Source: an uncultured Chloroflexia bacterium | GTDB taxonomy: Bacteria; Chloroflexota; Limnocylindria; Limnocylindrales; CSP1-4 | Length of the DNA stretch: 53,285 nt | NCBI GenBank assembly: GCA_963712745.1 | Contig: CAVQJC010000018.1 | Span: 1 to 53,285, forward strand | Direction of reading: 5' to 3' | Shown here: piece by piece, positions 24,392-43,541 of the stretch | Numbering within the stretch: the first letter of the stretch is position 1 | Layout: every line of letters begins with the position of its first letter | Made by a program: the position numbers and the translations under genes | The notes under the pieces: model-generated | What the model was told of the DNA's origin: nothing | The model's input: the letters and a program-made list of their open reading frames with translations, nothing else | Databases searched by the model: none

Positions 24392-25072
24392 TCAGCCGAC
24401 CTCGGGGTGGCCGGTATAGCCCTTCCTGACATCGGCGAACCGGGATCGCCAATCGCGTGGTCCATCACGCAGGTGGCGCACGTGGTCCATGACCTCGACG
24501 CGCATCGCCCGCCAGTAGAGTGCGGTGATGAGGAGCGCGTAGAGCGCTGCCGCGGGGTCGTCGCGAGCCACGACGAACCAGGGCGCCAGGAGTAGGGTCC
24601 AGCCGTCGTAGACGATGAGACGATCGGCGAGGATGAGCCCGATGCCGATACCGAGCGGGATGGTCACGAGCAACGCGACCGGATCGACGATGAGTAGTCC
24701 ACCGAGCATCGGCGATACTCCGAAACCGCCATGGAACCGGTAGTAGACCGGCCAGACGTGTCCCACCACGGCGAATAGCGCCGCCACCAGGTAGGCCGGC
24801 TCGTCCGGGGCGATGAGCCGGAACAGCGCGGTGACCAAGGCGGCCTTGGCGATGTCGAGGAGCGATACCAGCAGGCCCCATCGTCGCCCGGCCCGGATCG
24901 AGACGCTGGTGGCACTGACGCCGCTGACCTCGATAGGCCCCGAGCCTTCGTGGAACTGGAGCTCAGCCGTTCCAAGGTCGGCTCCGGCACCCACGCGCGT
25001 CCCGATGACCCGCGCGAACGAGATCGAGCCGATCAGGTAGCCGGCGAGCGCTGCGAGGGCCATGAGTGCCAT
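24392..25072 (-). CDS. PlsY-like glycerol-3-phosphate acyltransferase family protein (divergent)
   Basis: GYLIGSI, DIAKA, GHVWPVYYRFHGGFG. Confidence 0.82.
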   Translation of the reverse strand: MALMALAALAGYLIGSISFARVIGTRVGAGADLGTAELQFHEGSGPIEVSGVSATSVSIRAGRRWGLLVSLLDIAKAALVTALFRLIAPDEPAYLVAALFAVVGHVWPVYYRFHGGFGVSPMLGGLLIVDPVALLVTIPLGIGIGLILADRLIVYDGWTLLLAPWFVVARDDPAAALYALLITALYWRAMRVEVMDHVRHLRDGPRDWRSRFADVRKGYTGHPEVG

Positions 25073-25228: not shown

Positions 25229-26453
25229 CTATGGCCGTGCCAGCGTGCCGTCCGGGAGCCGAGTCTGCGTCCAGTCGACCACGCCGTCCTTGAACTGGGC
25301 CATGTCGGCGCGGAGCGGATAGCGCCGGGCGAGCTCTTCGTCGACATCGACACCCAGGCCTGGGTCGCTGCTCGGATACAGGTAGCCGTCACGTTGTTCC
25401 GGCCCACCCGGGAAGACCTCGCGCAGGACATCGGGAATGCCGGTGAACTCCTGGATGCCGAAGTTGGGCAGGGCCACGTCCAGGTGGACGTTGGCGGCAT
25501 GTCCGACCGGCGAGACATCGCTCGGGCCATGGAAGGCGGTGCGAACGCCGAACGATTCCGCGAGGGCGGCGAGCTTGCGCGCGGGCGTGAGGCCGCCGAT
25601 GTCGCTGAGGTGGACGCGGATGAAGTCGATGAGTCGGTCTGCGATGAGGCTGCGCCACTCCAGCGGATGCGTGAACAGCTCACCGATGGCGATAGGCGTT
25701 GCGGTCTGGGAGCGCAGCTCGCGGAGCCATGCCTGGTCCTCCGGCGCAAACGGATCCTCAAGGTAGAAGAGTCGATATGGCTCGAGCTCCTTGGCCAGTC
25801 GAACCGCGTCGATGGGCGCGAGACGCTCGTGGACATCGTGGAGCAGCTCGACCTCGAACCCGACCTTGTCACGAACGTGATCGAAGAGCGCCGGCACACT
25901 ACGCGCATACGAGGCGCGGTCGTAGTAGCGCCCAGGCTGGGTGCGGAGCTCCTGGCTGGTTGACGGACCCGAGCCACTCGACCCCGCCATAGCCGCCGAC
26001 CTGGCAGCGGATGTGGCGCAGGCCGTCCTCCTGCAGCTCAAGGACGCGGTCCAGGACCTCGTGGGCATCGCGTCCGTCGGCGTGCGCGTAGACCGCGGCG
26101 CCTTCCCGGACCTTGCCGCCGAGCAGCTCATACAGCGGCATCCCAGCAACCTTGCCCTTGATGTCCCACAGTGCCTGGTCCACCCCAGAGAGCGCGTTGT
26201 TGAGCACGGGCCCGTTGCGCCAGTAGGCGTTCTGGTAGACGAGCTGCCAGATGTCCTCGATGCGATGCGGATCTCGACCCACCAGCAGCGGTTCGAGATA
26301 CTCTTCGACGACGGTGCGGACGGCCAGCAGTCGCTGGGTAAAGGTCGCACAGCCGAGGCCATGCAGCCCCGGCTCCGAGGTCTCGACCTTGACCACGGCC
26401 AGCCCGACGCCCGCGGGCGCGGTGAGGATGCACTTGACCGCGGTGATACGCAT
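25229..26453 (-). CDS. Enolase-superfamily mannonate dehydratase-like protein (ManD/RspA), frameshift near 25935-25960
   Basis: N-half GLGCATFTQR, YWRNGPV, DQALWDIKGK; C-half LHDVHERL, YLEDP, GE, HGPSDVSPVG, NFGIQE. Confidence 0.85.
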
Positions 26454-26455
26454 GG

Positions 26456-27391
26456 CTATCTCCCTGGACTCTCCGATTTGGTCGGCTTGTCACGCCATGA
26501 GTGTCGGGCTTCCCAACCCAGGACCTCGCGGGCATGGTGGCAGTCGACCAGCGAGCGGTGGGGTGCGTCCGCCAAGTAGTGATCGGGATCGACGTTGGGC
26601 CACGGCACCTCCGGGTACTCGCGTTCGACCAGGGCTCGCGTGTCCTCGGCCACCGATGTGTCCCGCGCAGCCAGCAGGAAACGGTCGTGGAGAACGCCCT
26701 CGACCTGCAGGCTGCGGATGACCGCGTCGCTGACGTCTTGCACGTCGACGTAGGCCCAGTAGTTGTCGCGCCAGGTCTCGATGAACGACGCGGTCCCAAA
26801 GTCAGCCAGATGAGGGCTCGCGGGATGGGCCACGAACACGGGCCGAAGGCAGATGGTGATGAGCCCATGGCGTTCGGAGAACGAACGGCAGACCTCCTCC
26901 ATGAGGTGCTTGGAGAGCTGGTATGGGCTCATCGGATGGTGCGGGTACTCATCGTCGATGGGCAGGTACTCGGTCGGTCGCCAGCCCCCGACGCTGCCCT
27001 GTGCGTTGATGCTCGACAAGCTGACGACACGCTCGACACCCGCGTCTACCGCTGCCTGGAGCACGTTCCAGGTGCCGAGGACGTTGGTCGAGATGACCCT
27101 GGACCCGTCGCCAAGGTCCCAGGGGATGGCACCCGCGTGCACCACGGCGACCACGCCGGCCATCGCTTCTCGCACGGCCCCGAGGTCCAGTAGATCGGCC
27201 ACCCGGTGGTCGCTGTCGAGGGCGGTAGCTGGACGAAGATCCAGACCCCGCAGCAGATAGCCGTGTTCACGCAGTGCGCGACCCAGGTGCCTCCCGAGCG
27301 CGCCCTCGGAACCTGTGAGTAGCACGACTCCCGATGGGGCCGTACTCGATCGTGTCATCGGCTCGGGCGCATCGCCAGCGATGGTCTCCAT
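26456..27391 (-). CDS. NAD-dependent epimerase/dehydrogenase (extended SDR, uronate-dehydrogenase-like)
   Basis: TGSEGALG, NVLGTWNV, SS, YQLSK. Confidence 0.88.
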   Translation of the reverse strand: METIAGDAPEPMTRSSTAPSGVVLLTGSEGALGRHLGRALREHGYLLRGLDLRPATALDSDHRVADLLDLGAVREAMAGVVAVVHAGAIPWDLGDGSRVISTNVLGTWNVLQAAVDAGVERVVSLSSINAQGSVGGWRPTEYLPIDDEYPHHPMSPYQLSKHLMEEVCRSFSERHGLITICLRPVFVAHPASPHLADFGTASFIETWRDNYWAYVDVQDVSDAVIRSLQVEGVLHDRFLLAARDTSVAEDTRALVEREYPEVPWPNVDPDHYLADAPHRSLVDCHHAREVLGWEARHSWRDKPTKSESPGR

Positions 27392-27460: not shown

Positions 27461-27647
27461 AGGACACTTACCATGAGTGTATCCCACACGGGACGGGCCA
27501 GCCGCGAGGTTGGGTCGAAGGCGCCGAATGGAGGAGACGCCCAGGGATCGAACGAGGACCGTCACGCCCTTCAAGGGCCACCACCAGCAGAAGCTCGGTG
27601 GGACGTCTCAGCGACCAGTCAAGCGAGGAGGAGACAGAGAAACCACG

Positions 27648-29038
27648 ATGCGTAGATTCATCATCCTGACGGCCGCGACCGCACTGGCGGTGACGGCGTT
27701 CGCCGGCAGCGCGGCAGCCCAAGACCCCGTCAACTTGCGTGTGCTGGTTCACCAGAACCCGCCCTTCGTCGCGTACATGGAGCAGTTCAACGAGCAGTTC
27801 GAGGCCAACCACCCTGATATCAAGGTGGAGATGGCGGTCGTTAACGCGAACGACCTCATGACCAGCACGCAGACCCGCTTGATGGCCAATGACGTGGACG
27901 TCATCGACATCTTCGCCTACAGCAACGCCGCAGAGCCGTACATGGAGGGCACCGATCCGCCAGGTTGGCAGTCGCTCATCGATGCGGGCCTGATCATGGA
28001 CCTGACGGACCAGCCGTTCGTGGCCAACTACGATCCGGCCTCGATCGCCGATGCCGGCACCTACAACGACCGCGTGTACCAGATCAACCTTGGGCGCGTC
28101 GGCTTCAGCGGTGTCTACGTCAACAAGGACCTGCTGGCGGAGAACGGCGTCGACGTGCCGACGACCTGGTCGAGCTGGTGACGGCCTGTGAGACGCTCAC
28201 AGATGCTGGCGTTCCGTGCATGACGGCCGGCGGCGGAGACGGCTGGCCCATCTACGTCGGTGCCTATGGGCTGCTCGGCGCCAACTACCCGGACCAGGCA
28301 GCCCTCGTCGAGGGCCTGTGGACCGGCGACATCAAGTACACCGATGCGGAGTGGCTCGACCTGCTCGCCAAGTACCAGGTGTACAACCGCGACATGATGG
28401 AGCCAGGCGCCAGCGCGCTGCCCGGCGACGGTGCGCCAGGTCGATTCGCCTCCGGCGCCGTGGCCATGTTCCCCGGCGGCACGTGGTACGGACCGGCCAT
28501 CGAGGCGCTTGAGCCCACGTTCGACTGGGCCTACATCCCCTTCCCGGGCAGCGATGATCCGGCCAACAACCAGTACATGTTCGGCAAGTACGACCAGGGC
28601 TGGGCCATCGCCGGGAACTCGTCCAAGCAGGATGCGGCGCTGACCTATCTCAGCGACTTCTCGGAGCCTGAGAACTACCAGGCCTTCGTGGACGCGGTCG
28701 GCCCCATCCCTACACAGCCAGGTGCCACGCTCAACACCAAGATCGGGCAGGAGCTGGCTCCGTACCTCGATAACTTCCGACTCGGCTTCGAGGTGATCTG
28801 GACGCCGCCCAAGGGTATGGGCCAGTTCGGCGCTCCCCCGCTGGTGAACATGTTCCAGCCGTTCGGGACCTTCGATGATCCGCAGGCTGCCGCCGAGCAG
28901 GCACAGTCCGATCTCGACTCCGGCCTCGAGCGCCATCCAGTAGGACGTCTCCTCCTCCGGTGGACCGGAGGTGTTCGCGCTGACAGTGCGAGATCTCTGG
29001 TCCACCGCGGAGGAAATCGCAGCCGGGGAATGAGATGA
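27648..29038 (+). CDS. Carbohydrate ABC substrate-binding protein (frameshift near 28171; native stop possibly 28943)
   Basis: Signal peptide MRRFIILTAATALAV...; YVNKDLL..GVDVPTTW continues as ELVTACE...FASGAVAMFPGGTW in another frame. Confidence 0.85.
28952..29013. other. Long imperfect stem-loop between SBP and permease
   Basis: TCCTCCGGTGGACCGGAG ... CTCTGGTCCACCGCGGAGGA inverted repeat, at the usual position of mRNA-stabilising hairpins. Confidence 0.5.
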
Positions 29039-29967
29039 CCTACCACTTCGGCACAGGGCGAAGGGCCAGATCCTGGCCCTACCTCATGATGGCGCCGGCG
29101 GTGATCCTGTACGTCGTGCTCGCGCTGGGCCCATCCATCGCTACGAGCTTCTTCTCGGCCACTGACGCGACCGGCCTGCCGGGCCTCCCGGTCAACTTCG
29201 TGGGGCTGGACAACTACCGCGAGTTCCTCACCCTGGGCGCGCGCGCCCAGGAGAACCTCGACGCCATCTTCAGGACACTCGTGTTCTGCGTGGCCGTGAC
29301 GACCATCCAGTTCTCCCTGGGCTTGTTCGTGTCACTCCTGCTGAACATGGGCCTGCGTGGGACGAAGTTCTTCCGGACCCTCTTCTTCCTGCCCGTCATC
29401 CTGGGCGTCACGATCCAGGGACTGATGTGGACGCTCTTCCTGTATCCGCTGGGCGGTCCGCTGCAGTCCTTCCTCGAACTGTTCGGCATGCAGTCGCTGT
29501 TCCTTGGTGGGCAACCGGCCGAGGCATTCGCCTGGGTCATCGTCGTGCAGATCTGGTCCAACCTCGGCTTCACCATGGTGATCTTCCTGGCGGGCCTGCA
29601 GACCATCCCCGAAGAGGTCTACGAGTCTGCCCGGATCGACGGCGCCAGCCGGTGGCAGGCCTTCAAGAACGTGACCTGGCCGCTCCTGACGCCAGCGGTC
29701 AACACCAACCTCGTGCTGACCATCATCGGCTCGCTGCAGGCATGGCAGCTGTTCCTCGTCCTCACCGGCTACCGCCCGGGGACGCAGGTCATGGGCTACC
29801 TCGTCTACGCGGAGGCCTTCGGGCAGACGACCGGCAGCACGACCGTCAACAGTTTCCGACAGGGCTACGGGGCGGCCGCGGCGATGATCCTCTTCGTGAT
29901 CGTCCTCGCCATCGGCATCACCACCCAGTTCTTCCTGCGACGTAGAGAGGCTCGGCTGACAGGATGA
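29035..29967 (+). CDS. Carbohydrate ABC permease
   Basis: FRTLFFLP and AGLQTIPEEVYESARIDGAS. Confidence 0.93.
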   Translation: MTYHFGTGRRARSWPYLMMAPAVILYVVLALGPSIATSFFSATDATGLPGLPVNFVGLDNYREFLTLGARAQENLDAIFRTLVFCVAVTTIQFSLGLFVSLLLNMGLRGTKFFRTLFFLPVILGVTIQGLMWTLFLYPLGGPLQSFLELFGMQSLFLGGQPAEAFAWVIVVQIWSNLGFTMVIFLAGLQTIPEEVYESARIDGASRWQAFKNVTWPLLTPAVNTNLVLTIIGSLQAWQLFLVLTGYRPGTQVMGYLVYAEAFGQTTGSTTVNSFRQGYGAAAAMILFVIVLAIGITTQFFLRRREARLTG

Positions 29968-30845
29968 GTGTGGCGACGAACCAACGGCTGGACACCGCCG
30001 CGAGCGTGTCATCCACACCGACGCCGCCCCGCAAGCCGATCGACTGGGCGCGCATGGGATCCTATCTCGTGCTGCTCGTCCTCGGGGTCATCTATCTGGG
30101 ACCGCTGCTGATGCTGCTGAACACCTCCCTGTTGACGCCGGCCGAGTTCAACCGGTCGCCGATGACCCTGCCGTCGGCACCGAGCCTGGACAACTTCTTC
30201 GAGGCCTGGGACAAGGCCAACTTCGCCCAGTACCTGCTCAACAGCATCATCTACGTCGTCATCTCGACCGTGGTCTTCGTGGTCACCGGCACGTTCCTGG
30301 CCGTCGCCATCGCACGACGTTTCGTGCGGGGTGGCGGGCTGATGTTCACGCTCTTCCTGATCGCCGTCTTCCTGCCGCCGGCGCTCATCCCGCAGTTCCA
30401 GCTCATCCTGCGCCTGGGCCTGTTCAACAACCCGCTCGGCTACGTCATGCTATTCGTGGTCAACCCCATCGGCATCGTCATCCTGGTCAGCTACATCCGG
30501 ACCATCCCCAAGGAGCTGGATGAAGCCGTGGCCATCGAGGGTGCGGGCTACCTGCGCTACGTGTTCCAGATCGTCATGCCGCTGGCGAAGCCGGCGATCG
30601 CCACGGTCGCAGTGCTGCACGCGATCGGGGTCTGGAACGAGCTGATCCTGCCGACCATCTACCTGACGAGCCAGGAGTACTTCCCCGTCACACGCGGCTT
30701 GATCGTCTTCCAGGGCGTCTACGGCAACAACTGGCCACTCCTGGCCGCTGGTGTCCTGATGATCGCCCTGCCGATGGTGGTGTTCTTCATCTTCATGCAG
30801 CGCTACATCATCGGCGGCGTCACGGCCGGTGCCGTCAAGGGCTAG
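29964..30845 (+). CDS. Carbohydrate ABC permease
   Basis: IPKELDEAVAIEGA, WNE, QRYIIGG..AGAVKG. Confidence 0.93.
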   Translation: MSVATNQRLDTAASVSSTPTPPRKPIDWARMGSYLVLLVLGVIYLGPLLMLLNTSLLTPAEFNRSPMTLPSAPSLDNFFEAWDKANFAQYLLNSIIYVVISTVVFVVTGTFLAVAIARRFVRGGGLMFTLFLIAVFLPPALIPQFQLILRLGLFNNPLGYVMLFVVNPIGIVILVSYIRTIPKELDEAVAIEGAGYLRYVFQIVMPLAKPAIATVAVLHAIGVWNELILPTIYLTSQEYFPVTRGLIVFQGVYGNNWPLLAAGVLMIALPMVVFFIFMQRYIIGGVTAGAVKG

Positions 30846-30878
30846 CCAGATGCCGGAGACGCCTGGCGACGGCGAGGA

Positions 30879-32001
30879 GTGCACCTCTTGGTAGCAGGAA
30901 GGCGCCGGCAGGCCAAGGCATCCCGACGAGTGACGGTCAAGGACGTGGCCGCGCTGGCCAGCGTCTCGACGGCCACGGTCTCGCGCGTCGTGAACGGTAA
31001 CTCTCGCGTCGGCCCTGAGGTCAAGGCCAGGGTCATCATCGCCATCGACGAGCTGGGCTACGTGCCGAACCCTTCGGCGCGTAGCCTGATGACCCAGCGC
31101 ACGGGCTCCATCGGCGTGGTCGTTCTCGAGTCGGCTGACAGGCTCTTCGGCGACCCGTTCTTCGGACAGCTGATGCTCGGCATCAGCGCGGCCCTGGCAG
31201 AACGCGACCGGCGTCTCGTGCTCATGCTCGCCCCGACACGTGACGAAGAGTCCGGGGTCGAGCGCTACCTGGTCTCCGGCCACGTCGATGGGATCGTGCT
31301 CGTGGGCCCCCACGGTGCCGACCCCCTGCTGAAGCGCCTGATCCGAGGCCGCCTACCCATGGTCGTGAGCGGCCGGCCGATGGAGGATCGATCCAGTGAG
31401 CTACGTGGACGCCCACAACCGGAGTGGCGCTGAGTCGGCCGTGCGCCACCTCATCGCAAGCGGGAGACAGACCATCGCCACCATCTACGGCACGCTGGAG
31501 CTGCCCTCCGCGAGGGACCGTCTCGAGGGCTACCACGATGCGTTGATGAGTGCTGGACGCTCGATCGATCCCTCGCTGGAGGCATCCGGAGAGTACAGAG
31601 CGGCGACCGCCTTCACGGCCATGAGAACGCTGCTCCGGAGGCACCCTGAGCTCGATGCTGTGTTCGTTGGTTCGGACAGCATGGCCATCGCGGCCATGCA
31701 GGCCATCAAGGACTCCGGTCGTCGAGTCCCGCAGGACGTCGCCGTGATCGGGTTCGACGACCTGCCGACCGCTCTCGAATCCCGGCCCACGCTATCGACC
31801 GTGCGCCAGCCCATCGAAGCCATGGGGCGCGAGATGGTGCGGCTCGTGCTCCAACAGATCAGTGACCCCGACAGCGCCGCGAACGAGGTCGTCTTTGCCA
31901 CCGAGCTCGTGCTGCGAGGCTCGACCGGCGACGTGACCCAAGAAGCGCCTGTCGCGATCAGCGCGTACGACGCGGTGGCTTCCAGTGCCCCGGGCGATTG
32001 A
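30879..32001 (+). CDS. LacI family regulator (frameshift near 31395)
   Basis: TVKDVAALASVSTATVSRV and YVPNPSARSL, then VSYVDAHN, RLEGY, RVPQDVAVIGFDD, LSTVRQP in a second frame. Confidence 0.88.
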
Positions 32002-32008
32002 GGCGACG

Positions 32009-32905
32009 ATGGGGCCCACACGTCGGGCGGGAACGTTGGCCGTGGCTGCGAGCCTCGCTCTCAGCATCGCTGCCGCGGCGGGATCCGCCCTCGGTGCCGA
32101 CCCGGCCGAGCGCCGCGAGGTAGCGCCCATGGGACCGGCCGACTGGACGCTTGCCTGGAGTGATGAGTTCGAGGGTCCCGCGGGCTCCCCAGCCGATCGG
32201 GCGAACTGGGGCTACGACCTGGGTGACGGAAGCGCCATCGGTCTCGCCGGTTGGGGCAACAACGAGCGCGAGTGGTACACCGATGACGCGGCGAACGTGG
32301 CGCTCGATGGCGATGGCCACTTGGCCATCACCGTCCGCGAACCCGATGGCAGCCAGGAGTGCTACTACGGTCCGTGCGAGTACACGTCTGCTCGGCTGCT
32401 GACCAAGGACCGCTTCGAGTTCCAGCACGGCTACCTCGAGGCACGGATCCGCGTGCCTTCGGGCTTTGGCCTGTGGCCGGCCTTCTGGCTGCTCGGGTCG
32501 AACATCGACGAGGTGAGCTGGCCCGCTTCCGGCGAGATCGATGTGATGGAGTTCGTCGGCCGGCGACCCAACGAGATCTGGGGCACCCTGCATGGACCGG
32601 GCTACTCGGGCAGCAGCGGCATCAGCGGGCAGATCGACCTTGGTGGACCGGTGGCAGACGCATTCCACACCGTCGCGCTGCATTGGGAGCCCGGCCGTAT
32701 GGCCTGGTTCCTGGATGGCTTGCCCTACCACGAAGTGACGCGCGAACAGGTCGCACCCAACGAGTGGGTCTTCGAGCAGCCCTTCTTCATGCTGCTCAAT
32801 GTGGCCGTCGGCGGCAACCTCGGAGGCCCCGTCTTCCCGGACACCGTCTTCCCCGCGCAGATGCTGGTGGAGTACGTCCGCCTCTATCAGCCGGAGGCCG
32901 CATGA
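32009..32905 (+). CDS. Secreted GH16 endo-beta-1,3-glucanase (laminarinase-like)
   Basis: Signal peptide, WSDEF, GWGNNE, YTSARL, WPAFW, catalytic EIDVME, LNVAVGG. Confidence 0.92.
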   Translation: MGPTRRAGTLAVAASLALSIAAAAGSALGADPAERREVAPMGPADWTLAWSDEFEGPAGSPADRANWGYDLGDGSAIGLAGWGNNEREWYTDDAANVALDGDGHLAITVREPDGSQECYYGPCEYTSARLLTKDRFEFQHGYLEARIRVPSGFGLWPAFWLLGSNIDEVSWPASGEIDVMEFVGRRPNEIWGTLHGPGYSGSSGISGQIDLGGPVADAFHTVALHWEPGRMAWFLDGLPYHEVTREQVAPNEWVFEQPFFMLLNVAVGGNLGGPVFPDTVFPAQMLVEYVRLYQPEAA

Positions 32906-35900
32906 TCACCCACGACGACATCGTCCGGCCGGCGCAAGCCCTGGTCCCCGCGGGCGAGCTCTCGGTCCAGGGAGGCTTCGTCACCATCGAAGGGGACCGC
33001 TACGCCCGTATCGCCGACGTCGATTCCATGCCACCGTTCCTCATGAGCGTCGTCAGTGACAGCGATGTGTGGCTGTTCGTCGGCTCGAATGGAGCCTTCA
33101 CGGCGGGGCGTCGCGATCCCGATCACGCGTTGTTCCCGAGCCAGACAGCCGACAAGATCCTGCGCGATTCGAACGCCAGCGGTGTTCGAAGTGCCCTCCT
33201 CGTATCTCGCGGTGGGCCTGTGACCCTCTGGCAGCCCTGGCTGGACGTTCCGGGGACCCGGTCGGTGCATCGGAACCTCTACAAGCGTGTCGACGGAACA
33301 GCGGTGATCTTCGAGGAGCTCAACGTCGACCTGGGCCTGCGCTTTCGCTGGCGTCTGTCGGCCTGCGAGGCCTTCGGGGTGGTCCGCCACGCCGTCGTCG
33401 ACGAGATCGCCGGCGAGGCCGTCGACGTCCGCTACCTCGACGGCTGGCACGACCTAATCCCGCCGGGGGTCCACAGGGACCTGTACGCGCGCCTGAGCTA
33501 TCTGGCCATCGCCTACATGCGCCACGAGCGCCTCGAGGAATCTCGCCTGGCGCTCTACACCCTCAACACGATGGTCTCCGATCGTCCCGAACCGTCGGAA
33601 GCGCTGCGCGTGGCGACGGCTTGGGCCATCGGCCACGCGGCTCCGCACCTGCTGCTGAGCGACGCACAGGTGGAGAGCTTCCGCCGGGGAGGCGTGGTGA
33701 CGAGCGAGTCGGAGGTCCGGGGAATGATGGGCGCGTACCTGGCGGCCGACCGGGTCGCGCTGCAGCCGAATGGCTCACATGACTGGTATGCGGTCGCAGA
33801 CACCGGCCTCGACCACCCGATGGTGCGTGAGCTGGCCCACCGACTGGACGCTCCCGATGACGAGTTGCGCTCGGCCCTGGAGGCGGCGCTGGAAGCCGAC
33901 CGCGCCGGGGTGCAGCGTCGCTTGGCTGGAGCCGACGCCACGCAGTCCACCGCCGACGAGGCCGCCACTGCCAACCATGTCGCGAACGTGCTCTTCAACC
34001 TCATGCGTGGTGGGACGTTCGAGAACGACTATGCGGTCCCGCGCCGCGACCTCGTGTCCTACCTGACCGACCAGAACCGGGTCGTGGCCGCACGTCATGA
34101 GCCCTGGCTTTCCCAGCTGCCCGAATGGATGGCCCTGGACCAGCTGCTGCGGTCGGCGCAGGCGCAAGACGACCCGCAGCTGACGCGCCTGCTGCACAGC
34201 TACCTGCCCCTCACCTTCAGCCGCCGTCACGGCGATCCAAGCCGGCCCTGGAACTGGTACACCATCCGCGTCCACGACGGTGACGACCTGGTCTACGGCT
34301 ACGAGGGCAACTGGCGCGACATATTCCAGAACTGGGAAGCCCTTGGCGTCAGCTACCCGGGCTACCTGCCCCAGTTCATCAACGTGTTCCTGAACGCGTC
34401 GACGGCGGACGGGTACAACCCCTATCGCATCACACGGGCCGGGATCGACTGGGAGGTCGAGGATGCCGATGACCCCTGGAGCCACATCGGCTACTGGGGT
34501 GACCACCAGATCGTCTACCTCCTTCGGCTGCTGGAGGCCTACGAGCGGCACGAGCCGGGCGTCCTTCGAGCAGGGCTGGGCGACCGGATCTACTCGTATG
34601 CCGACGTTCCCTACCGGATCGACGACTTCAGCTCTATCGTCGCCGACCCGCGCCATACCATCACGTTCGATCACCCGCGACACCAGGCCTTGCTGGCCGC
34701 TGCTCAGGAGCTTGGCGCCGACGGGAGGCTGATTCGCGATGACGATGGTGAGGTCCGGCTCGTCACGCTCGCGGAGAAGCTGCTGGTCCCACTGCTGATC
34801 AAGCTCACCAACCTCGTCCCCGGTAGCGGTATCTGGCTCAACACCCAGCGCCCCGAGTGGAACGATGCGAACAACGCCCTCGCGGGCCTGGGGCTATCGG
34901 TCGTGACGCTCAACGCCCTCGTGCGCTACGCCAAGTTCCTGCTGGACACGTTCTGGGGCGATGGTGACGTCGAGCTGTCAGCCTCGGTGCGCGCCTTGCT
35001 CGACGAGCTGAACGACACCCTGAGCGCGGCCGTGCTGCCGATGGATGACCAGGAGCGCTATGCGACGATGGCGCGACTCGGAAGAGCAGGCGAGGCGCAC
35101 CGGGAGGCGGTCTACGCGGGAGCTTTCGGGGCGGCGGTCCCGACGGACCCGTCGGCGATCCGTGCGCTGCTCGATAGCGCGATCCGCCTGGCCCAGGCGA
35201 CCATCCAGGCCAGCAGACGAGCGGACGGGCTCTTCCACAGCTACGACGTCCTGAGCATCGACGGTGAGCGCGCACGGGTCGATCACCTCGGACCGATGCT
35301 CGAGGGACAGGTCGCGGTCCTCGAGTCCGGGATCCTCGACGACCACGCGTCCGTCGCGCTCCTGCGCGCCCTCCGCGAGAGCGGCCTCTACCGCCCCGAT
35401 CAGCACAGCTATCTGCTCTATCCCGATCGTCCCGCTGTGCCGTTCCTCCAGCGGAACACCATCCCGGGCGCGCCGCCGCTCGTCGACCCCTCGCTCTTCG
35501 TGCTCGATCGTGAAGGCGCGTGGCACTTCCAGGCCGACCTGAGCACACTGTCGGACATCGATGACTGTCTCGACACCATCGACGCGCCGCCCCACGTGCG
35601 GGAGGAGGTTCGCCAACTCTGGCGCGACACGTTTGCGCACGACGAGTTCACCGGCCGGAGCGACCGCTTCTTCATGTTCGAGGGCCTTGGCAGCATCTAC
35701 TGGCACATGGTCGCGAAGCTCGCCGTAGCCGTGCTGGGGTGTCACGGTCGCGCCTCTGACCCGGTCGCGCGGGCGGCACTGGCGGAGATCTACCACGACA
35801 TCCGCGATGGGCTCGGTTTCCGCAAGGATCCCGCCCTCCAGGGCGCGTTCCCCACCGATCCGTACTCGCACACTCCGCAGCATCTCGGCGCGCAGCAGCC

Positions 35901-36291
35901 GGGCATGACCGGGCAGGTCAAGGAACAGGTGCTCACGAGGTTCGGGGAGCTAGGCGTCGAAGTGATCGACGGCTGTGTGCGGTTCGCGCCCCGATTGATC
36001 CCCCGGAGCGAGCTTCTCGATGCACCCAGCGGTGCGAGCTTCCGCACGGCTGACGGCAGGAGCATGTCGGTCGACCTCACACCGGGCAGCCTCGCCTTCT
36101 CGTATTGCCAGGTGCCCATCATCTACACGATCGCTGGCGCTCCCGGGATCGAGTTGGAGCATGCGGACGGCCGGATCGAACATGTCGACGGCACACAGCT
36201 GGACAAGAGGCAGAGCGCGGCGCTCTTCGAGCGTCGCAGGGCGTACCGCCGCCTGACGGTGACCGTCCCGGGCGATCAGCTGTACGAGTGA
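32902..36291 (+). CDS. GH149-like beta-1,3-glucan phosphorylase (1129 aa)
   Basis: [77 protein letters not shown]; size matches the family. Confidence 0.82.
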
Positions 36292-36346
36292 TGCCAGTCG
36301 TCCATGCCTGGCGCGTCCCCTCGCCAGCTCCCTCCGTAGGCACCTC

Positions 36347-37772
36347 ATGACGGCGGCGAGTGCGTCGACGCGTGGGACCCCTGATCCCTCGCTCGCCGTG
36401 GATCCATCGCGGTTCCCGGACACGTTCCTCTGGGGTGCCGCCACGTCGGCCTATCAGGTCGATGGTGGCGCGCGAGAAGACGGTCGCACGCCGTCGATCT
36501 GGGACACCTTCTCCCATACGCCGGGCAAGACGAATCGAGGCGACACCGGCGACGTCGCCTGCGACCACTATCACCGGTGGTCGGAGGACGTCGACCTCAT
36601 CGCGGACCTGGGCCTGAATGCCTACCGACTCTCCGTCTCCTGGCCGCGACTGCAGCCCGGCGGAGCCGGCCCACTGAACCTGCGTGGCGTGGCCTTCTAC
36701 CGCTCACTCCTGGAACGCCTTCGGTCGCGCGGTGTCCGACCTTTCGTAACGCTCTATCACTGGGAGTTGCCCCAGGAGCTCGAGGAGGCGGGCGGTTGGC
36801 CCGAACGAGACACTGCCGCTCGATTTGCCGATTTCGCGGGTGCGGCCGTGGCCGCGCTCGGTGACCTAGCGAGTGACTGGATCACCCTGAACGAGCCGTG
36901 GTGTCAGGCGTTCCTCGGCTACCACAGCGGCATCCATGCCCCGGGTCGGCAGAGCCTTGCGGACGCCGTGGCCGCTGCGCACCATCTGAACCTCGCCCAT
37001 GGCCTGGCTGTCGGCGCGATCCGGGCGGCGCGCGATGAGACAAGCATCGGTGTCGCCAACATCCTTACGCACATCCGACCCGAAGTCGCAGCGCCCCGCG
37101 GACGTCGAGGCTGCCGAGCGGGTCGACCTGAACAACAACCGGCTGTTCCTCGATCCGGTGCTGCTGGGCCACTACCCCGCCGCGGTCGAGGACCTCTACG
37201 GGGCGTACGGGTTCAGCGGACTGGTCCGAGCAGAGGATGAGTCCATCATCGGGGTCCCGCTGGACTTCCTGGCTGTCAACCACTACCACCACATGGTCAT
37301 CGAGGCAGACCCGTCAGATCCGCACCTGGGAGCTCGCGGGGTGTCGGCCGAGCCAGCGACCACCTCACTCGGCTGGTCCGTGACTCCCGAGGCCCTGTAC
37401 GCAGTGCTCATGCGCGTAGGCAGGGAGTACCCGCCCATCCCGCTATTCATCACCGAGAACGGCGCCTCGTACGCTGACTACGTCGACCCCACGGGGGCGG
37501 TGCGTGACATCGAGCGCGTCGAGTACCTGCAGGGGTACCTGGGTGCGGCTGCTCGGGCCATCGAGGCCGGCGTGGACCTGCACGGCTACTTCGCCTGGTC
37601 ACTCCTCGACAACTTCGAGTGGGGTGAGGGCTACCGGAGCCGGTTCGGCCTGGTGTACGTCGACTACGGCACGCAGCGACGAATCCCCAAGGCCAGCGCC
37701 GGCTGGTATCGCGACCTGATACGGCGACACTCGGTCAGCCAGGGTGCGCGATCGATCTCAGCGCGAGGCTGA
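36347..37772 (+). CDS. GH1 beta-glucosidase (frameshift near 37080)
   Basis: [36 protein letters not shown]. Confidence 0.9.
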
Positions 37773-37874: not shown

Positions 37875-38364
37875 ATGACGAACACGCGGTACTCGACCAC
37901 CCGTCCGGAGCGCGTCCGGGTCGTCGTCGCGATGCTCTTGCTCGCGCTCGCCAGTATCCCGTCGCTGGCCGCACCAGTCGCGGCCCAGGAGGAGTCGCCC
38001 GCGCCATCGGCATCTCCGACCGCGGCCGAGGCTGCCTGCGCCAGCGCCAGCGACCTGCGTTTCATCATCGACTTCATCGCTGACAGCGTGGAGTCAGAGA
38101 GCGGCCTGATCCCGGTCGCGGTCGGCGCCATCGCGGCGCTGAGTGAGGCGCGGACCCTGGCGGGACTGGCAGGCGAGACGTATCGACCGCTCGTTGAGTG
38201 ATCTCGTCGTCTCGCTCCAGGACCTGCGTGACGCGGTCGGGGACCTGGAGGACCTGGACACGGCCGGGGCCAAGCTTGCGGTCATCGGGGGATCGGTCGA
38301 GGACATCGGCAACGCGATGGACGCGCTGTCGGTGCAGCTTCGAACTCGCTGTCCGGCCGAGTAG
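37875..38364 (+). CDS. Exported hypothetical protein (frameshift near 38198)
   Basis: Signal peptide ...AAPVAAQ; GTT GAG (T) GAT CTC joins a helical C-terminus ending RCPAE*. Confidence 0.55.
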
Positions 38365-38506
38365 CCAGTCGAATCGCCTGCTCACGACCAGGGCCAGATG
38401 CCCGTAGCGGTAGCGCGGGCACGTGTTCCGCATGATCGACCTGTCGACAAGTCCTCCGCGGATGAGCAGGCGACGATCGGCCGGGTCATGCGCGATATCG
38501 TCGAGT

Positions 38507-39292
38507 TCATCCGCGCCGGCGGGTGCCCGCGCGAGCGGCATCGTCCATGTAGGGATAGCGGATGAGCCCGCGCTCGCGAAGCCACTTGTGCATGTACCCG
38601 AAATGTGTGCGTTCGAAGGCCGCGTGGAACTCGCGGGTCTCGAACTCCCCGGCGCGACGGAACCGATTGACCTGGCGGAGCTCCTTGGTCGACGCAGGCC
38701 AGCGTACGGCATTGACCACGAGCGCATAGACCACCAGATCGGGCTTGCGGCGCGCCGCGAAGTAGAGCGGCAGGTAGGCGGTCCAGCCCTCCGCTGCCAG
38801 CAGCGGGTCCCTCAGGATGTAGAGGCCGACCAGCTGGCTGGCGACGATGCTCACGGGGATCGCGAGCGGGTCTCGGGCAAGGCACATGCCCATCGTCACC
38901 GAGTCACCGCGACCGCCGGCGAACCGGTGCTGTAGCGGCAGCATCTGGCCGACACTGCTGGCCGACGCCCAGAGGATGTCGAGATGTCGGCCGGGATGGG
39001 TACGTCGAAGGACGAGGGTCGGCAATGCCACCTTGGCCATGTCCAGCAGCGAGGCCACGATGCCCAACGCTGGGCCCGCGGTGACCTCCACCGTCGTCGC
39101 TCCTGCGAAGTCGAAGCGGATCGCCTTGCCCTCGCCCCATTCGAGGATGAGGTGGTTGGTGGTGGGCTTGTGGCTGACCATGCGCTGGATGATGCGGGGG
39201 ACCTGGATCGACCCGACCGCGTATGCGACCACGGCGAGTGCGGCAGCTCGCAGGATCCGTCGCGATGTCACGATGCCTGGAAGCAGCACCAT
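38507..39292 (-). CDS. Second divergent PlsY-like acyltransferase family protein
   Basis: AYAVGSI, GATTV, DMAKV, GQMLPLQHRFAGGRG. Confidence 0.75.
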   Translation of the reverse strand: MVLLPGIVTSRRILRAAALAVVAYAVGSIQVPRIIQRMVSHKPTTNHLILEWGEGKAIRFDFAGATTVEVTAGPALGIVASLLDMAKVALPTLVLRRTHPGRHLDILWASASSVGQMLPLQHRFAGGRGDSVTMGMCLARDPLAIPVSIVASQLVGLYILRDPLLAAEGWTAYLPLYFAARRKPDLVVYALVVNAVRWPASTKELRQVNRFRRAGEFETREFHAAFERTHFGYMHKWLRERGLIRYPYMDDAARAGTRRRG

Positions 39293-39513
39293 CGGCCGGT
39301 CGCGTGCCGAGGCTGTCCTGCCACGCCGACGGCTATCGTCGCGATCAAGTGCGCCATCTGCCCATCGTAGACCGACGCCACGCGCCAGGACCAGGAGCCG
39401 CTCGAATCGAGCCCGATTCCCGCCGAGGAGTTGACGCGGTCGCTGGGTGACCCTATAGTCTCGACAAACCATCAACAGACGCGAGACATGAACCGAGGGG
39501 GCCGCACCCAGCC

Positions 39514-40332
39514 ATGAACATCGACGCCGTAAGCGCAGCACCGGCTGTGCAGATCTCGGATGAACGAAGACACAGCCTCTTTCGATGGAATGGCGTGCTG
39601 GCAGCCCTGCACGGTATCCAGGGACTCATCATCCTGGCCATCTCGCTCGCCGCGGCGGAGCTCGTCACCTCACCGGTGGTCAGCAGCTACCTGTCGTTCG
39701 ACAGCGCGACCGATTCGCTCGTCCCCGCAGAGCAGACCCTGTTCGACCTGCCCATCGGACCTGCGGTGGCACTGTTCTTCTTCCTGAGTGCGGGCGCTCA
39801 TGCGCTGTTGGCCTGGCCGGCCCGAGGCTGGTACGAACGCAAACTCGGTGAACACATCGCACCCGCGCGCTGGATCGAGTACTCACTCAGCTCGAGCGTC
39901 ATGATCGTGGTCATCGCCGCCCTCTCGGGCATCCAGGAGATCGGCACGCTGGTGGCTCTCTTCGGCATCAACGCAGCGATGAACCTGTTCGGCTGGTCGA
40001 TGGAGTCTGCCAACCAAGGTCGCGAGAAGACCCAGTGGAATCACTACGTGTTCGGCGTCATCGCGGGCATCGTGCCCTGGATCGTCATCGGCATCGCACT
40101 CTGGTCCGCCTCCAACGAACCGGGTGCTGCGGGCGTACCCACGTTCGTCTACGTCATCTTCATCTCGCTCTTCCTGAGTTTCAACGTCTTCGCCATCACC
40201 ATGATCCTGCAGTACGGCAAGGTCGGACGCTGGCGTGACTACCTGGTGGGCGAGAAGTCCTACATGCTGCTGAGCCTCATCGCCAAGACCCTGCTCGCAT
40301 GGCAGGTCTTCGCCGGAACGCTTCGGCCATGA
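39514..40332 (+). CDS. heR: Heliorhodopsin
   Basis: LHGIQ, AH, RWIEYSLSSSVM, NAAMNLFG..E, VPW, FNVFA..LQY, RDY..GEKSYMLLSLIAKTLLAW with the retinal-binding Lys. Confidence 0.93.
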   Translation: MNIDAVSAAPAVQISDERRHSLFRWNGVLAALHGIQGLIILAISLAAAELVTSPVVSSYLSFDSATDSLVPAEQTLFDLPIGPAVALFFFLSAGAHALLAWPARGWYERKLGEHIAPARWIEYSLSSSVMIVVIAALSGIQEIGTLVALFGINAAMNLFGWSMESANQGREKTQWNHYVFGVIAGIVPWIVIGIALWSASNEPGAAGVPTFVYVIFISLFLSFNVFAITMILQYGKVGRWRDYLVGEKSYMLLSLIAKTLLAWQVFAGTLRP

Positions 40333-40964
40333 CCAGGCACTGGCCCGGCGTGGCGGCCCTCGCAGCAGCGATGCTGTTGCTTCCGGCCTCGGCTGCGGCG
40401 CATTCTCCGTCGGTCACGAACGAAGTGGCGTCGGCCCCCGACGAGGCCATCGTCCTGGAGGACCCCACGCTGTCGCGCGCCGTTGGCGCACTGCTCAGTA
40501 CTCCGGGCGAGATCGACTGGTATCGGATGGACCTCCAGGCCGGAGATCCGCTCGTCGTCGGCATGACGGCCCCCGATGCCCAAGGCGCCGTGGCTGCGAC
40601 GTTCACGCTGCTCGGCCCGGGGCTGCCAGGTGCGGCCTCGAGCGGCGCGGCCGCACTTGAGCTTGCCGAGCGTGTCGACGTGGACGGCGCGGTCGTCTTC
40701 CGACCAGCAGCCGACCCGCCCCGCGAAGTGCATGGCGGGTTGGGCTTCATCAACTACGGAACGCTGCGGCTGGAAGCGCCCGAGACCGGCTCCTACTGGG
40801 TCGCGGTCTCAGCCGTGGATGCCAGCGAGACTGGCAAGTACGTCTTCGCTCCCGGGCTCCGCGAGGAGTTCGGCACGGACGCGATCGGTGGCATGGTCGA
40901 TCTCATCAGGTTCTTCAACGCACCATGGCCCGCGAGCGACGCGCAGAGCGAAGTCTCGTCCTGA
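40329..40964 (+). CDS. Exported protein with PPC-like beta-sandwich motifs
   Basis: Signal peptide ...ASAAAH; GEIDWYRMDLQAGD, APETGSYWVAV, GKYVFAPG.REEF; ATGA overlap with the heR stop. Confidence 0.7.
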   Translation: MTRHWPGVAALAAAMLLLPASAAAHSPSVTNEVASAPDEAIVLEDPTLSRAVGALLSTPGEIDWYRMDLQAGDPLVVGMTAPDAQGAVAATFTLLGPGLPGAASSGAAALELAERVDVDGAVVFRPAADPPREVHGGLGFINYGTLRLEAPETGSYWVAVSAVDASETGKYVFAPGLREEFGTDAIGGMVDLIRFFNAPWPASDAQSEVSS

Positions 40965-41057
40965 TGGCCGGCCTCATCGGGCACGTCACAGAGGGCGACG
41001 GATCTCGGGCCGACGCCGGCAACAGCGGGCCCGCCGAGATGAGGCCACGCCGGCGTA

Positions 41058-42002
41058 GTGGCTGCCCCGGCCTGGTTCACGCCGCTTCCGGAAGGTCGGG
41101 CGGTGGACCAGTCTGACCTGCTTCAGTACATCAAGAGCACAGAGAAGCTGGTCATCCCGAAGGCCGTCGGGAAGTTGTATCAGCGCGCGGAGATGCTCAG
41201 CAAGCTGCCAGTGGGCGTGCAGAAGTGGATCGTTGGTCGGGCAAGCGGAAGCAGCTCGGAGATCGCGTTCGTGGTCGAGCCGTACAGCCTCTTCCTGGCC
41301 TACGAGATCGAGGATGTAGCAGAAGCCGCCAGGCAACTACCGCCTGGCTACGAGCTGGTGCCGACCGCGATGTTCGCGGATACGGCACCGACACCCTGCG
41401 CGATCATCGGCGCATTCAACGTGCACACCTCCGTGTTCTGGGGAAGCCGCGTGGAGTTCTCTCTCATCGCAGAGAACAAGCGGACGGGAATGCTGTCGTG
41501 GGTCATCTGCGATTACGAGTCGAACACCATCAGCTACGACCCCGGCCAAGGGTTCTCCGGATCGAGCACCAGCCATGCGGTGGTCACGACTTCCCATGCT
41601 GGCGATCTGATCGTCGACGTGGAGAGCGAGCACAGTCGCAATCGCATCGCAAGCGTCGCGAACCTGAACGCGGCTTCGATGCGACCGCTTGACCAGCGCC
41701 TCTGGCTTGATGGGAATCTCTCCGTGGATTACGGAGGACGGCTGCTGGATAAGGATTCCGTTCCCTTCGGTCTCGTCTTCGACCCCGGAGAAGTGGAGCA
41801 AGCCCTGCACATCCCGCTGGAAGCCGTCGAGGTCGAGAGCAACACGTTCGGGCACGGGCTCCTGGCCAGCGAGCCCTTCGAGGCATGCTGCTTTCCCTTC
41901 GCTCAGCATTACCAGACCACCAGTTTCCCCGCGTCAAGCCCTATCACGAACCGGGAGGACCTGGAAAAGGCGGTCAAGGAGATGAACTCCGGCTCGCGGT
42001 AG
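41058..42002 (+). CDS. Hypothetical protein (possible acetoacetate-decarboxylase-like fold)
   Basis: Long ORF with protein-like composition; AARQLPPGYEL pattern; start may be GTG 41103. Confidence 0.65.
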   Translation: MAAPAWFTPLPEGRAVDQSDLLQYIKSTEKLVIPKAVGKLYQRAEMLSKLPVGVQKWIVGRASGSSSEIAFVVEPYSLFLAYEIEDVAEAARQLPPGYELVPTAMFADTAPTPCAIIGAFNVHTSVFWGSRVEFSLIAENKRTGMLSWVICDYESNTISYDPGQGFSGSSTSHAVVTTSHAGDLIVDVESEHSRNRIASVANLNAASMRPLDQRLWLDGNLSVDYGGRLLDKDSVPFGLVFDPGEVEQALHIPLEAVEVESNTFGHGLLASEPFEACCFPFAQHYQTTSFPASSPITNREDLEKAVKEMNSGSR

Positions 42003-42641
42003 TCAACCCGTATCCACCGGGACTCCCGCACAGCGTTCGTGGTTCCAGACGCCTTCCCGGCTGGAGCGTACCCTGCGGCTCCGGTCGATGCCCGCCCCGC
42101 GTGCGAAACGGCAGGGCCCGACGCCTGCGTTGACCCATGACTGATCCGATGGCGGTGAAGGCGAAGGCCGCGCTGGCCGGGTAGCCCGCGAGGAGCACCG
42201 CACCAGAGGTTCGAGCGACCGATCCCGTTCGCTCGACCGACCGCGGCCTGGCTCATGCGACCATCGACGAGCTCGATCAGGTGGTCGAGCTCATGGAGCG
42301 GCTCTGGGACGGCTCGCCTGGTACGACTCCAGCCGCCGACACGCAGGGATTTCACGGGGTCTCATCGGTGCGTCTCCTCGTGAGACCGCCTGGCCAAGTG
42401 GGGAGACCAGACACACTGCTCATTCGGTGCGCGCGATGAGACCCCGTGAACTGGAGCTGCCGAGGGAAACGGACCGCTCCAGCAAGGCCGACGGTCGACC
42501 CACAAAGGCCGGCGGCGGCCGGGCGGCCGAGCCCTAACCCGAGGGACGGCGCCCGTGATGAGCGTGCCCTCCCGTGAGCGTCCCGTCATGACAATTCGTC
42601 ATCTCCACGAGGCCACCGGCCAAAGCCTGCAGCGCCACACG

Positions 42642-42747
42642 CTCGGCAGCGTCCTCACGGTCCATGTCGATCACGCTCATGTGGGGCGCCAGTCAGCCAG
42701 GATCACTTCCGCATCCAGCGAGGGTGCTTGGCCTTCACAGACCGAAG
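42642..42747 (-). pseudogene. Degenerate fragment of a paralog of the 43975-44754 response regulator
   Basis: Reads DAEVILADWRP(H)MSVIDMDREDAAE with indels, versus EAEAILAAWRPHVSVVDMDSEDSAE at 44539-44645; DNA similarity is visible. Confidence 0.7.
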
Positions 42748-43295
42748 GGCATGAGCCTCCTCATCGAAGTCCTCGATGGCGACCAGCCGCGAAGCGAGCT
42801 CGACGGCGGCGTCGGCGTCACCAGTGGCCAGCCGGGCCGTCGCCGACTCTCGCAGGACGGAGGCGCTGATGCCTGCGAACCGTCGCCGTTCGGCGAGGAG
42901 CCACGTCTCGAAGGCGGGGCTGCCTGGGATATCGATGCCTTCGAGGAGCTCGTGTCCCAGGCCTGGGACCGCGACAGCAGCCGCCACGTCAGCACCGCCA
43001 AGGACGACGACGTCGACGACGCTGTCGTCGGGCAGCTTGACCGTCAGTGGTTCGCCGCCCAGCGCGACAGGGTCGCCCAGCGTCCGCCGCAGCTGTGCCA
43101 GGTTCCAGCGCAAGGTACCGAGCGGGTCCGCGGCCTCGTCGAACAGCAGGTCGCCACCCGCTCTCGCGACGGCGCTCGCGGCGTGAGCAACAGGTAATCG
43201 AGGAGCGCCCAGGCCTTGCGACCGCGTGGCGACGGGGCCGGCCGGCCGTCGATCTTCACGCTCGGGTTGCCCAGCAGGTCGATGGTGACACTCAT
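42703..43295 (-). pseudogene. Truncated, frameshifted SARP/BTAD transcriptional activator
   Basis: IDLLG..PRGRKAWALL.YLLL..SRERVA, shift near 43150, LRWNLAQLRR..FETWLLAERRR..DEEAHAL, then abrupt loss of homology. Confidence 0.75.
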
Positions 43296-43541
43296 GACAT
43301 CGACAGCCTGACCCTGCGGTCGTCGGATGACATCCGGTCCGGGCCGATCAGAAGGGTGGCTCGGGGCGGCGGTCGTGCGGGTATCCCACGCTCGGACCCA
43401 GCTGACCTCGGATGGCGATGCGGACCAGGGCGGACTGCACGCGCCTGCCTTGCCGCCGGGCGCCGACCACGACACCAGCACCCATCGACCCGATGGAGCG
43501 CCGCTGTCGCAGGGCCTGGGTCCACCTTGAAGCGGCGGTCA

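Follow-up and report, generated by a model that had tools for sequence, protein, structure and literature searches.

A heliorhodopsin gene overlapping the gene of an exported, unnamed protein in a small clade of Chloroflexota

Results

The heliorhodopsin gene and its overlapping neighbour

We analysed a 53,285-bp stretch (67% G+C; the window below) of contig CAVQJC010000018.1 from an uncultured Chloroflexia bacterium. The window contains a gene for a heliorhodopsin (HeR), and the end of this gene overlaps the start of a second gene, which codes for an exported protein called EXP here. The features on which the following description depends are:

39514..40332, + strand: heliorhodopsin gene, an intact, stop-free open reading frame (ORF) of 272 amino acids (aa), identified by Pfam PF18761, the NCBIfam equivalog and its match to TaHeR
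39859..39861, + strand: codon GCA of Ala116, at the position of Asn101 of HeR 48C12 in the alignment to TaHeR and 48C12
40285..40287, + strand: codon AAG of Lys258, the retinal-binding lysine of helix 7, aligned with the SLVAK lysine of TaHeR and 48C12
40329..40332, + strand: ATGA, the overlap of the HeR stop codon (TGA, 40330-40332) and the EXP start codon (ATG, 40329-40331), read from the sequence
40329..40964, + strand: EXP gene, coding for an exported protein of 211 aa with a predicted signal peptide (residues 1-24) and a PPC-like beta-sandwich, as judged from homologues, an AlphaFold (AF2) model and Foldseek
40401-40403, + strand: codon of His25, the expected mature N-terminus of EXP, placed by the A/H-x-P motif
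39431..39459, + strand: putative promoter of sigma-70 type in front of HeR-EXP, TTGACG-17-TATAGT (10 of 12 positions match)

An earlier reading of the same DNA, made from its letters alone (the sequence-only reading), had described the heliorhodopsin as intact, and this is borne out by the unbroken 272-aa frame, by two curated profiles and by the alignment of the key residues. The protein matched PF18761 over profile positions 1-242 of 242 (1.3e-89; 300.1 bits, cut-off 26.7) and the HeR equivalog NF038020 with 302.1 bits (cut-off 100). By both profiles, the protein is a member of the heliorhodopsin family. The nearest solved structures are TaHeR (6is6, 1.5e-66) and then HeR 48C12 (6su3, 3e-49), which are matched over the full length, with the retinal lysine, the counterion glutamate, both histidines and the Schiff-base serines all aligned. 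K258 is invariant in 40 of 40 rows of a HeR alignment (A2). E122, which pairs with the helix 3 counterion Glu of TaHeR and 48C12, is invariant in the same alignment, as are H33 and H96 (40 of 40 rows), which pair with His23 and His80 of 48C12 in helices 1 and 2. S92, S126, and S254 align with the serines around the Schiff base of TaHeR and 48C12, and Y107, E164, Y243, and E247 align with cavity residues named for 48C12 (PMC7049168). Met230 occupies the Gln213 position of 48C12, where Met is reported to be a frequent variant among HeRs (PMC7049168). The window HeR differs from TaHeR and 48C12 at the Asn101 gate, which is Ala116 here, and the clade of EXP-linked HeRs to which it belongs has residues of its own at the edge of transmembrane helix 1 and extracellular loop 1 (TM1/ECL1) and in intracellular loop 1 (ICL1).

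Pfam scans of the 79 ORFs of the window (9 + 70) revealed no carotenoid- or retinal-synthesis family, in agreement with the sequence-only reading, which had found no retinal synthesis gene there. Since blh is reported to be rare near HeRs (preprint 10.1101/2021.02.16.431466), the lack of such genes in the window is usual.

The spacer and its conserved signal

Upstream, HeR is separated from a divergent PlsY-like gene by a spacer of 221 bp (39293-39513), which had been read from the letters as an intergenic region of about 220 bp. TTGACG-17-TATAGT was the only promoter-like site in 38300-42300 (the mean number in shuffled sequence was 0.3). Its -35 element, TTGACGCG, and an ACAAAC box past the -10 element are invariant in the window and in the two other genomes that have HeR in front of EXP (loci L001 and L033, see below). 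As far as can be judged from the sequence, the conserved signal of the spacer is this sigma-70-like promoter, and not the inverted repeat that the sequence-only reading had pointed out:

39458..39487 (arms 39458-39463 and 39482-39487), no strand assigned: inverted repeat GTCTCG-N18-CGAGAC, probably due to chance, as judged from shuffles and lack of conservation

The repeat is present where that reading had placed it, but it does not rise above chance: the 221-bp spacer has six inverted repeats or palindromes of six bases, this one included, the same pattern appeared at least once in 40 of 100 shuffles of the window, and it is not kept in the aligned spacer sequence of L001. The repeat was therefore rejected as an operator. 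The idea that the leader contains a riboswitch or another known RNA was rejected as well, since no Rfam family reached its gathering score anywhere in the window. A terminator scan revealed no site after EXP; it picked up a single one, located within HeR, a count no higher than shuffled sequence would give.

EXP is a predicted exported protein of a conserved family that has no name

The sequence-only reading had stated that the HeR stop codon overlaps the start of a gene for a signal-peptide protein. Both parts of this statement agree with our results: the overlap is the ATGA listed above, the signal peptide is a typical one, and EXP homologues share the same Met start. EXP had no match in Pfam (E <= 0.01) or NCBIfam, a search of PDB sequences returned nothing at E <= 10, and a protein atlas contained EXP in unnamed clusters only. 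Homologues were nevertheless plentiful, with 284 clusters at E <= 1e-3. The best 120 of these are 65-81% identical to EXP, and all but one, source-named nitroreductase, are unnamed or called “hypothetical protein”. A library of 1.84 billion sequences yielded 220 representatives, 38 of them below 1e-10. Judged by these homologues, EXP is a real and conserved family to which no name has been given.

An AF2 model of EXP calculated from 32 sequences (pLDDT 81.9, pTM 0.76) is a beta-sandwich with helices. The top Foldseek match of the model was the collagen-binding domain s3b of ColG (1nqd; E 1e-4, TM score 0.67 by target and 0.39 by query). Other matches were the lysozyme inhibitor PliG and, weakly, copper-binding CorA (4bz4; E 4.4e-4, TM score 0.32). 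In sequence searches, the PPC family (PF04151) appeared below threshold (18-25 bits, cut-off 25.9) in 7 of 41 EXP-like distant relatives. The modelled EXP thus appears to share a beta-sandwich of similar topology with PPC/collagen-binding domains, but differs from them in that it has no PF04151 match of its own, is a stand-alone secreted protein, and contains extra helices and an invariant N-terminal His.

This histidine stands straight after the predicted cleavage site and is followed by x-Pro; the A/H-x-P motif is present in 40 of 40 aligned close and distant EXP relatives. The assignment of His25 as the first mature residue follows from the sequence pattern, in which the signal peptide ends with AAA, then H. 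A second histidine, H135, is invariant in close relatives and is Phe in distant ones. The invariant residues of EXP are the same with or without an adjoining HeR. Many of the distant relatives (P0282-P0318) are fusions of ~330-370 aa, in which an EXP-like domain with the same A/H-x-P start is joined at its C-terminal end to a membrane domain, for which about four helices are predicted. The idea of a split gene, in which DUF2177 (a family known from HeR neighbourhoods, see below) would be this four-helix domain encoded separately, was rejected at an hhalign probability of 0.3%.

Secreted copper proteins with an N-terminal histidine include LPMO, CopC, and YcnI. EXP resembles these proteins, and CorA/MopE (4bz4), in its predicted mature N-terminus and in the weak fold match to CorA, and COX1 genes adjoin EXP in three loci. 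It differs from them in that no sequence relation was found, in the replacement of H135 by Phe in distant relatives, and in the low TM score to CorA. In loci L004, L006, and L015, COX1 (heme-copper oxidase subunit I) and a preceding 241-aa ORF lie downstream of EXP on the same strand, and in L015 they follow EXP directly. The adjacency is a weak hint at a copper-related role of the N-terminal-His protein.

Conservation of the HeR-EXP pair

One scan of genome contigs with EXP produced 39 loci, all from metagenome-assembled genomes (MAGs) of Chloroflexota, many of them labelled Candidatus (Ca.) Limnocylindrales. An upstream HeR could be assessed in 38 of the loci, L039 being cut at the contig end. 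When the loci were searched by tblastn with the window proteins, a HeR directly upstream of EXP was found in two of the 38 (L001 and L033), in addition to the window. The L001 HeR is 84% identical to the window HeR; that of L033 is 85-94% identical and frameshifted. L016 has a HeR of 69% identity on the opposite strand, at a distance of 3 kb from EXP, and none was found in the other 35 loci. The 4-nt stop/start overlap is kept in both linked loci, as GTGA in L001 and as ATGA in L033. In a maximum-likelihood tree of 37 EXP rows, calculated without four rows of less than 120 aa (L034, L038, L038b, and L039), the EXPs of the window, L001 and L033 group in a single clade (support 99/97). The HeR-EXP linkage has a single origin and is limited to one small clade. 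Elsewhere, EXP has other stable settings: it is divergent from a GFO/IDH/MocA oxidoreductase cluster (16 loci) with SIS-domain genes (14 loci), and a cyclophilin gene follows it (15 loci). The neighbourhood check proposed in the sequence-only reading, carried out here in an EXP-centred form, thus extended the HeR-EXP arrangement to two further genomes; it did not do so for the PlsY-like gene, which appeared in none of the 39 loci.

A lineage-specific operon or a pair of partners

We favour, as the rather more probable account though well short of a secure one, the view that the locus is an ordinary heliorhodopsin in a lineage-specific two-gene operon without a demonstrated functional tie between its products. 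An intact HeR from a Chloroflexota lineage that lives in soil or freshwater (Ca. Limnocylindrales) would be expressed from its own sigma-70-type promoter, and in one small clade it would stand directly in front of the single-copy EXP gene, forming a two-gene operon. The two genes would be co-transcribed, and translationally coupled by the stop/start overlap. HeR itself would most likely be a slow-cycling retinal photoreceptor that modulates another protein, as reported for other HeRs; the residues around the Schiff base are all present, and the one exchange concerns the Asn that closes the cavity toward the cytoplasm, where this clade has Ala and most close relatives have Gln. EXP would be secreted, with its signal peptide cleaved before the invariant His25. 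It probably has a function of its own, because the same conserved residues are kept in many genomes where no HeR adjoins it. The PlsY-like gene would be a chance neighbour brought by rearrangement. At the level of sequence comparison, a functional tie between HeR and EXP can be inferred at most.

Several observations weigh against this account. HeR and EXP have remained adjacent through changes of the upstream flank, which differs in each of the three genomes: it consists of the PlsY-like gene in the window, of a UbiA prenyltransferase gene and a 128-aa ORF in L001, and of genes for two histidine kinases, a LuxR response regulator, and PNPOx in L033. Six more pairs of HeR and EXP clusters have longest contigs of equal size (2348, 9672, 2202, 15226, 10110, and 2388), which hints at further HeR-EXP links and at selection for the pair. 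At the outer TM1/ECL1 edge, the EXP-linked HeRs show residues peculiar to their clade (L45, A47, A48, and E49). In addition, the linkage counts come from an EXP-centred scan, and are fractions of EXP loci rather than of Limnocylindrales HeRs with EXP, PlsY-like, or DUF2177 neighbours. Finally, two published surveys give DUF2177 as the neighbour most specific to HeRs, and in 8 of the 39 loci (L021, L022, L027, L028, L030, L031, L035, and L037) a DUF2177 gene immediately precedes EXP in the same orientation. All eight belong to one separate, sister clade of EXP (14 rows of the tree), with no HeR in the range searched. Through DUF2177, EXP may therefore be part of a network related to HeR, and not a mere passenger. 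The adjacency of EXP and DUF2177 is new as far as the literature was searched, and loosely ties EXP to the published HeR neighbourhood.

Alternatively, HeR and EXP could be true partners. The exported N-terminal-His beta-sandwich would then act at the outer face of HeR, where it would either be the effector of the light signal or provide a metal or lipophilic cofactor, and the operon would fix the stoichiometry. The overlap kept in three genomes with rearranged upstream flanks, the six further contigs (judged probably linked from their equal sizes), the adjacency of EXP and DUF2177, and the clade-specific outer edge of HeR all fit such a partnership. The fusion of distant EXP relatives to a four-helix membrane domain also fits, suggesting that the fold normally works at the membrane. 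We nevertheless regard the partnership as possible but doubtful. The linkage arose once, 36 of the 38 assessable EXP loci have no HeR directly upstream, and the invariant residues of EXP do not change with the presence of HeR. Ala116 is placed on the cytoplasmic side by the 48C12 work (PMC7049168), and so cannot touch an exported protein. A complex prediction for HeR (A2) and mature EXP (alignment A1, residues 25-205) gave 0.00 and 0.00 against a mark of 0.32; made without controls, it counts neither way. Of the extracellular partner proposed in the sequence-only reading, what stands is the conserved overlap with the gene of an exported protein in L001 and L033, which belong to one clade with the window.

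A wider version of the partnership is more speculative still, and we give it little weight. HeR, DUF2177, and EXP may form one envelope-facing, light-responsive system of Chloroflexota, in which the exported N-terminal-His beta-sandwich, possibly a binder of a metal or a lipophilic ligand, would be the outside partner of HeR and would have been fixed as an overlapping operon in the Ala116 clade.

The cavity-gate variant

The sequence-only reading had noticed that the usual Asn before the RWxEY motif appears to be Ala. The alignment to TaHeR and 48C12 confirms this: the window motif is EHIAPARW, and the Asn that stands three residues before the Arg of RWxEY in TaHeR and 48C12 corresponds to A116. 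In 48C12, this residue, Asn101, is described as highly conserved, and no other side chain is said to separate the cavity around the Schiff base from the cytoplasmic bulk (PMC7049168). Of the best 120 of 5,347 HeR matches (counted as clusters), 104 have Gln at the gate position, 10 have Ala, and 6 have Asn. Asn is thus not the rule in this HeR clade, and Ala marks the nearest relatives only. The gate residue is Ala in all three EXP-linked HeRs (the window, L001, and L033) and Asn in the HeR of L016; among the six HeR clusters of the equal-sized pairs, it is Ala in three and Gln in three.

One could accordingly propose that HeR itself is altered and that the variant residue, not the neighbouring genes, is what is notable about the locus. 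The exchange of Asn101 for Ala would open the Schiff-base cavity to the cytoplasmic interface, changing the photochemistry or admitting ions or small molecules. The separating role ascribed to Asn101 in 48C12 speaks for this proposal, as do the presence of Ala in 10 of the 120 close clusters and in all operon-bearing genomes, and the co-variation of the adjoining ICL1 residues A103, K110, and A118 in the EXP-linked clade. We consider it very unlikely all the same. A position that is already Gln in 104 of 120 close relatives appears to be tolerant in the clade, and the remaining cavity residues listed for 48C12 (PMC7049168) are kept with the exception of Met230, itself a frequent variant.

The PlsY-like neighbour and the lipid-module idea

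The window contains two genes of the PlsY family:

38507..39292, - strand: PlsY-family paralogue (PF02660), 261 aa from the start shared with homologues, non-canonical; the divergent neighbour of HeR and a neighbour only
24392..25072, - strand: second PlsY-family paralogue, non-canonical (PF02660, 65 bits; TIGR00023, 61.9 bits against 137.2)

The sequence-only reading had proposed that HeR, its PlsY-like neighbour and an extracellular partner form a light-regulated membrane-lipid module. The neighbour of HeR is a true, if distant, member of the PlsY superfamily: it scored 46.9 bits against PF02660 (cut-off 24.1), and a profile of 26 family members matched aaPlsY (5xj5) at 9.9e-14 over chain residues 9-177. 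In contrast, its score against the PlsY equivalog TIGR00023 was 31.5 bits, with a cut-off of 137.2. In aaPlsY, the phosphate of glycerol 3-phosphate (G3P) is clamped by Ser35, Arg45, Lys104, and Asn180, and the acyl phosphate is bound by Thr41 and His92; the set S35/N37/R45/H92/K104 includes an oxyanion helper, and mutating these residues lost most of the activity, K104R being the mildest change (PMC5700162). In the window protein, S35 is replaced by F, N37 by F (A in the family consensus), R45 by V, H92 by Q (a nearly invariant replacement), and K104 by R. T41 is retained, as is the Gly-rich loop. The alignment runs out at chain residue 177 and does not cover His177 and Asn180, and no His is conserved in the family columns that follow. 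The window protein also differs from PlsY by 5 residues inserted into motif 1 and by the lack of an aligned motif 3, and its family adds a conserved C-terminal tail of ~60 aa. As judged from these replacements, the PlsY-like protein is probably not a glycerol-3-phosphate acyltransferase.

The family comprises 32 clusters, two of which are source-named as MAG proteins of Chloroflexota / Ca. Limnocylindrales. Its C-terminal tail (window 38507-38700) is strongly conserved, cytoplasmic, rich in His, Glu, and Arg, and has no Pfam or PDB match at the thresholds used. The two paralogues of the window are 34% identical (alignment A3), and the second one adjoins HupE/UreJ and DUF6512 genes (23004-24316, + strand).

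Outside the window, the HeR and PlsY-like genes were not found together. Tblastn with both window paralogues detected a PlsY-like gene in none of the 39 EXP loci, including L001 and L033, for which full 10-kb flanks were available. None of the 32 PlsY-like clusters has a longest contig equal in size to that of any of the 120 HeR clusters listed. A survey of 448 HeRs (PMC11109279) mentions neither PlsY nor acyltransferase in the nine of its supplementary files that were searched. In a literature search that counted terms in each paper, no paper with both heliorhodopsin and PlsY was among the matches listed.

Light control of membrane-lipid synthesis, with HeR regulating the divergent PlsY-like enzyme through a shared regulatory region, is on this evidence the least probable explanation that we weighed. 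The divergent arrangement with its 221-bp spacer is real. A role of HeR in lipid remodelling has been proposed from DegV, DUF2177, and DUF1295 neighbours (10.1101/2021.02.16.431466), and DegV/FakB is part of a system that makes acyl-phosphate, the substrate of PlsY (PMC9136124). Against this stand the absence of a PlsY-like gene from every EXP locus, the two closest HeR-EXP loci among them, the lack of a contig-size match, and the position of PlsY outside the ten neighbour groups given for the 448 HeRs (PMC11109279). The silence of the matched literature, the low equivalog score, the replacement of the G3P clamp residues S35 and R45 and of the acyl-phosphate ligand H92, and the chance level of the inverted repeat count against it as well. 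The lipid-remodelling idea for HeR is already in print on other evidence, and since the PlsY-like neighbour is unique to the window and looks catalytically different, it adds little to that idea.

Other features of the window

A further ORF follows the HeR-EXP pair:

41058..42002, + strand: ORF of 314 aa, 93 bp after EXP, a possible third gene without a Pfam or NCBIfam match

L033 has a 79%-identical homologue of this ORF downstream of EXP, starting ~1.4 kb beyond the EXP match; L001 lacks it. An atlas lead points to an acetoacetate-decarboxylase-like (ADC) family, with PF06314 on 21% of one cluster.

Beyond it, at 42590-43480 (- strand), are ORFs that look like pieces of one regulator split over frames; they have no Pfam match at 1e-5, and presumably resemble SARP-type activators. 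Just upstream of the HeR region is a cluster for beta-glucan utilisation (27477-37772), which contains genes for a sugar ABC binding protein and permeases, a LacI regulator, GH16, GH149, and GH1; the GH149 protein is a beta-1,3-glucan phosphorylase (NF058639, 1257 bits). Four genes of the window are split over two frames: GH1 (36347-37772), a solute-binding protein (27477-29035), LacI (30846-31998), and an enolase-superfamily enzyme (25232-26489). EXP or HeR is similarly frameshifted in the MAG loci L026, L033, L034, and L038. Errors of long-read assembly are likelier than pseudogenes as the cause of these splits. Unlike the frame-split genes, the HeR, EXP, and PlsY-like genes of the window are intact. 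At 1812-3859, 36 kb from HeR, the gene of a DUF1295 membrane protein overlaps that of a methyltransferase similar to cyclopropane-fatty-acyl-phospholipid synthase; DUF1295 is reported as a HeR-associated family (Chazan preprint, 10.1101/2021.02.16.431466).

Discussion

The genes reported next to HeRs are diverse. They include glutaredoxin/GSHPx, glyoxalase, catalase, DICT, and histidine kinase genes (PMC8612252), and DegV and DUF2177, often accompanied by DUF1295, are given as the most HeR-specific neighbours, from which membrane-lipid remodelling was proposed (10.1101/2021.02.16.431466). A survey of HeR operons arranges the neighbours of 448 HeRs in ten groups (PMC11109279). HeR operons in print contain glutamine synthetase, photolyase, the ABC transporter OmrDE, and, in Dehalococcoides, the order helR-DUF2177-alpha/beta hydrolase (PMC9529153; PMC9769723; PMC11109279). 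The arrangement described here resembles the published operons in that HeR and EXP are on the same strand, with a very short or negative gap between them and one promoter-like site upstream. It differs from them in that EXP is exported, belongs to no named family, and is outside the ten published groups. It also differs in being limited to one small clade, with no recurrence in independent lineages among the 38 assessable loci.

The published surveys are based on annotation, using either Pfam/COG domains (PMC8612252; Chazan preprint) or product names (PMC11109279). EXP, which has no named domain, would thus have been invisible to them. The question of whether HeR and EXP bind to each other has different consequences depending on the answer. 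If they do not, the locus is that of an ordinary HeR, and the lipid-module idea should not be carried forward on this evidence. If they do, EXP would be the first protein to partner a heliorhodopsin at its outer face; should the wider system outlined above be real, it would be the first extracellular partner proposed for one.

For only a few HeRs is the function known, and in every case an operon neighbour led to it. The locus links EXP to DUF2177 and shows a natural variant of the cavity gate, with Asn101 replaced by Ala. It also adds to the known arrangements a type of HeR operon that has been hidden from domain-based surveys, because EXP has no Pfam family.

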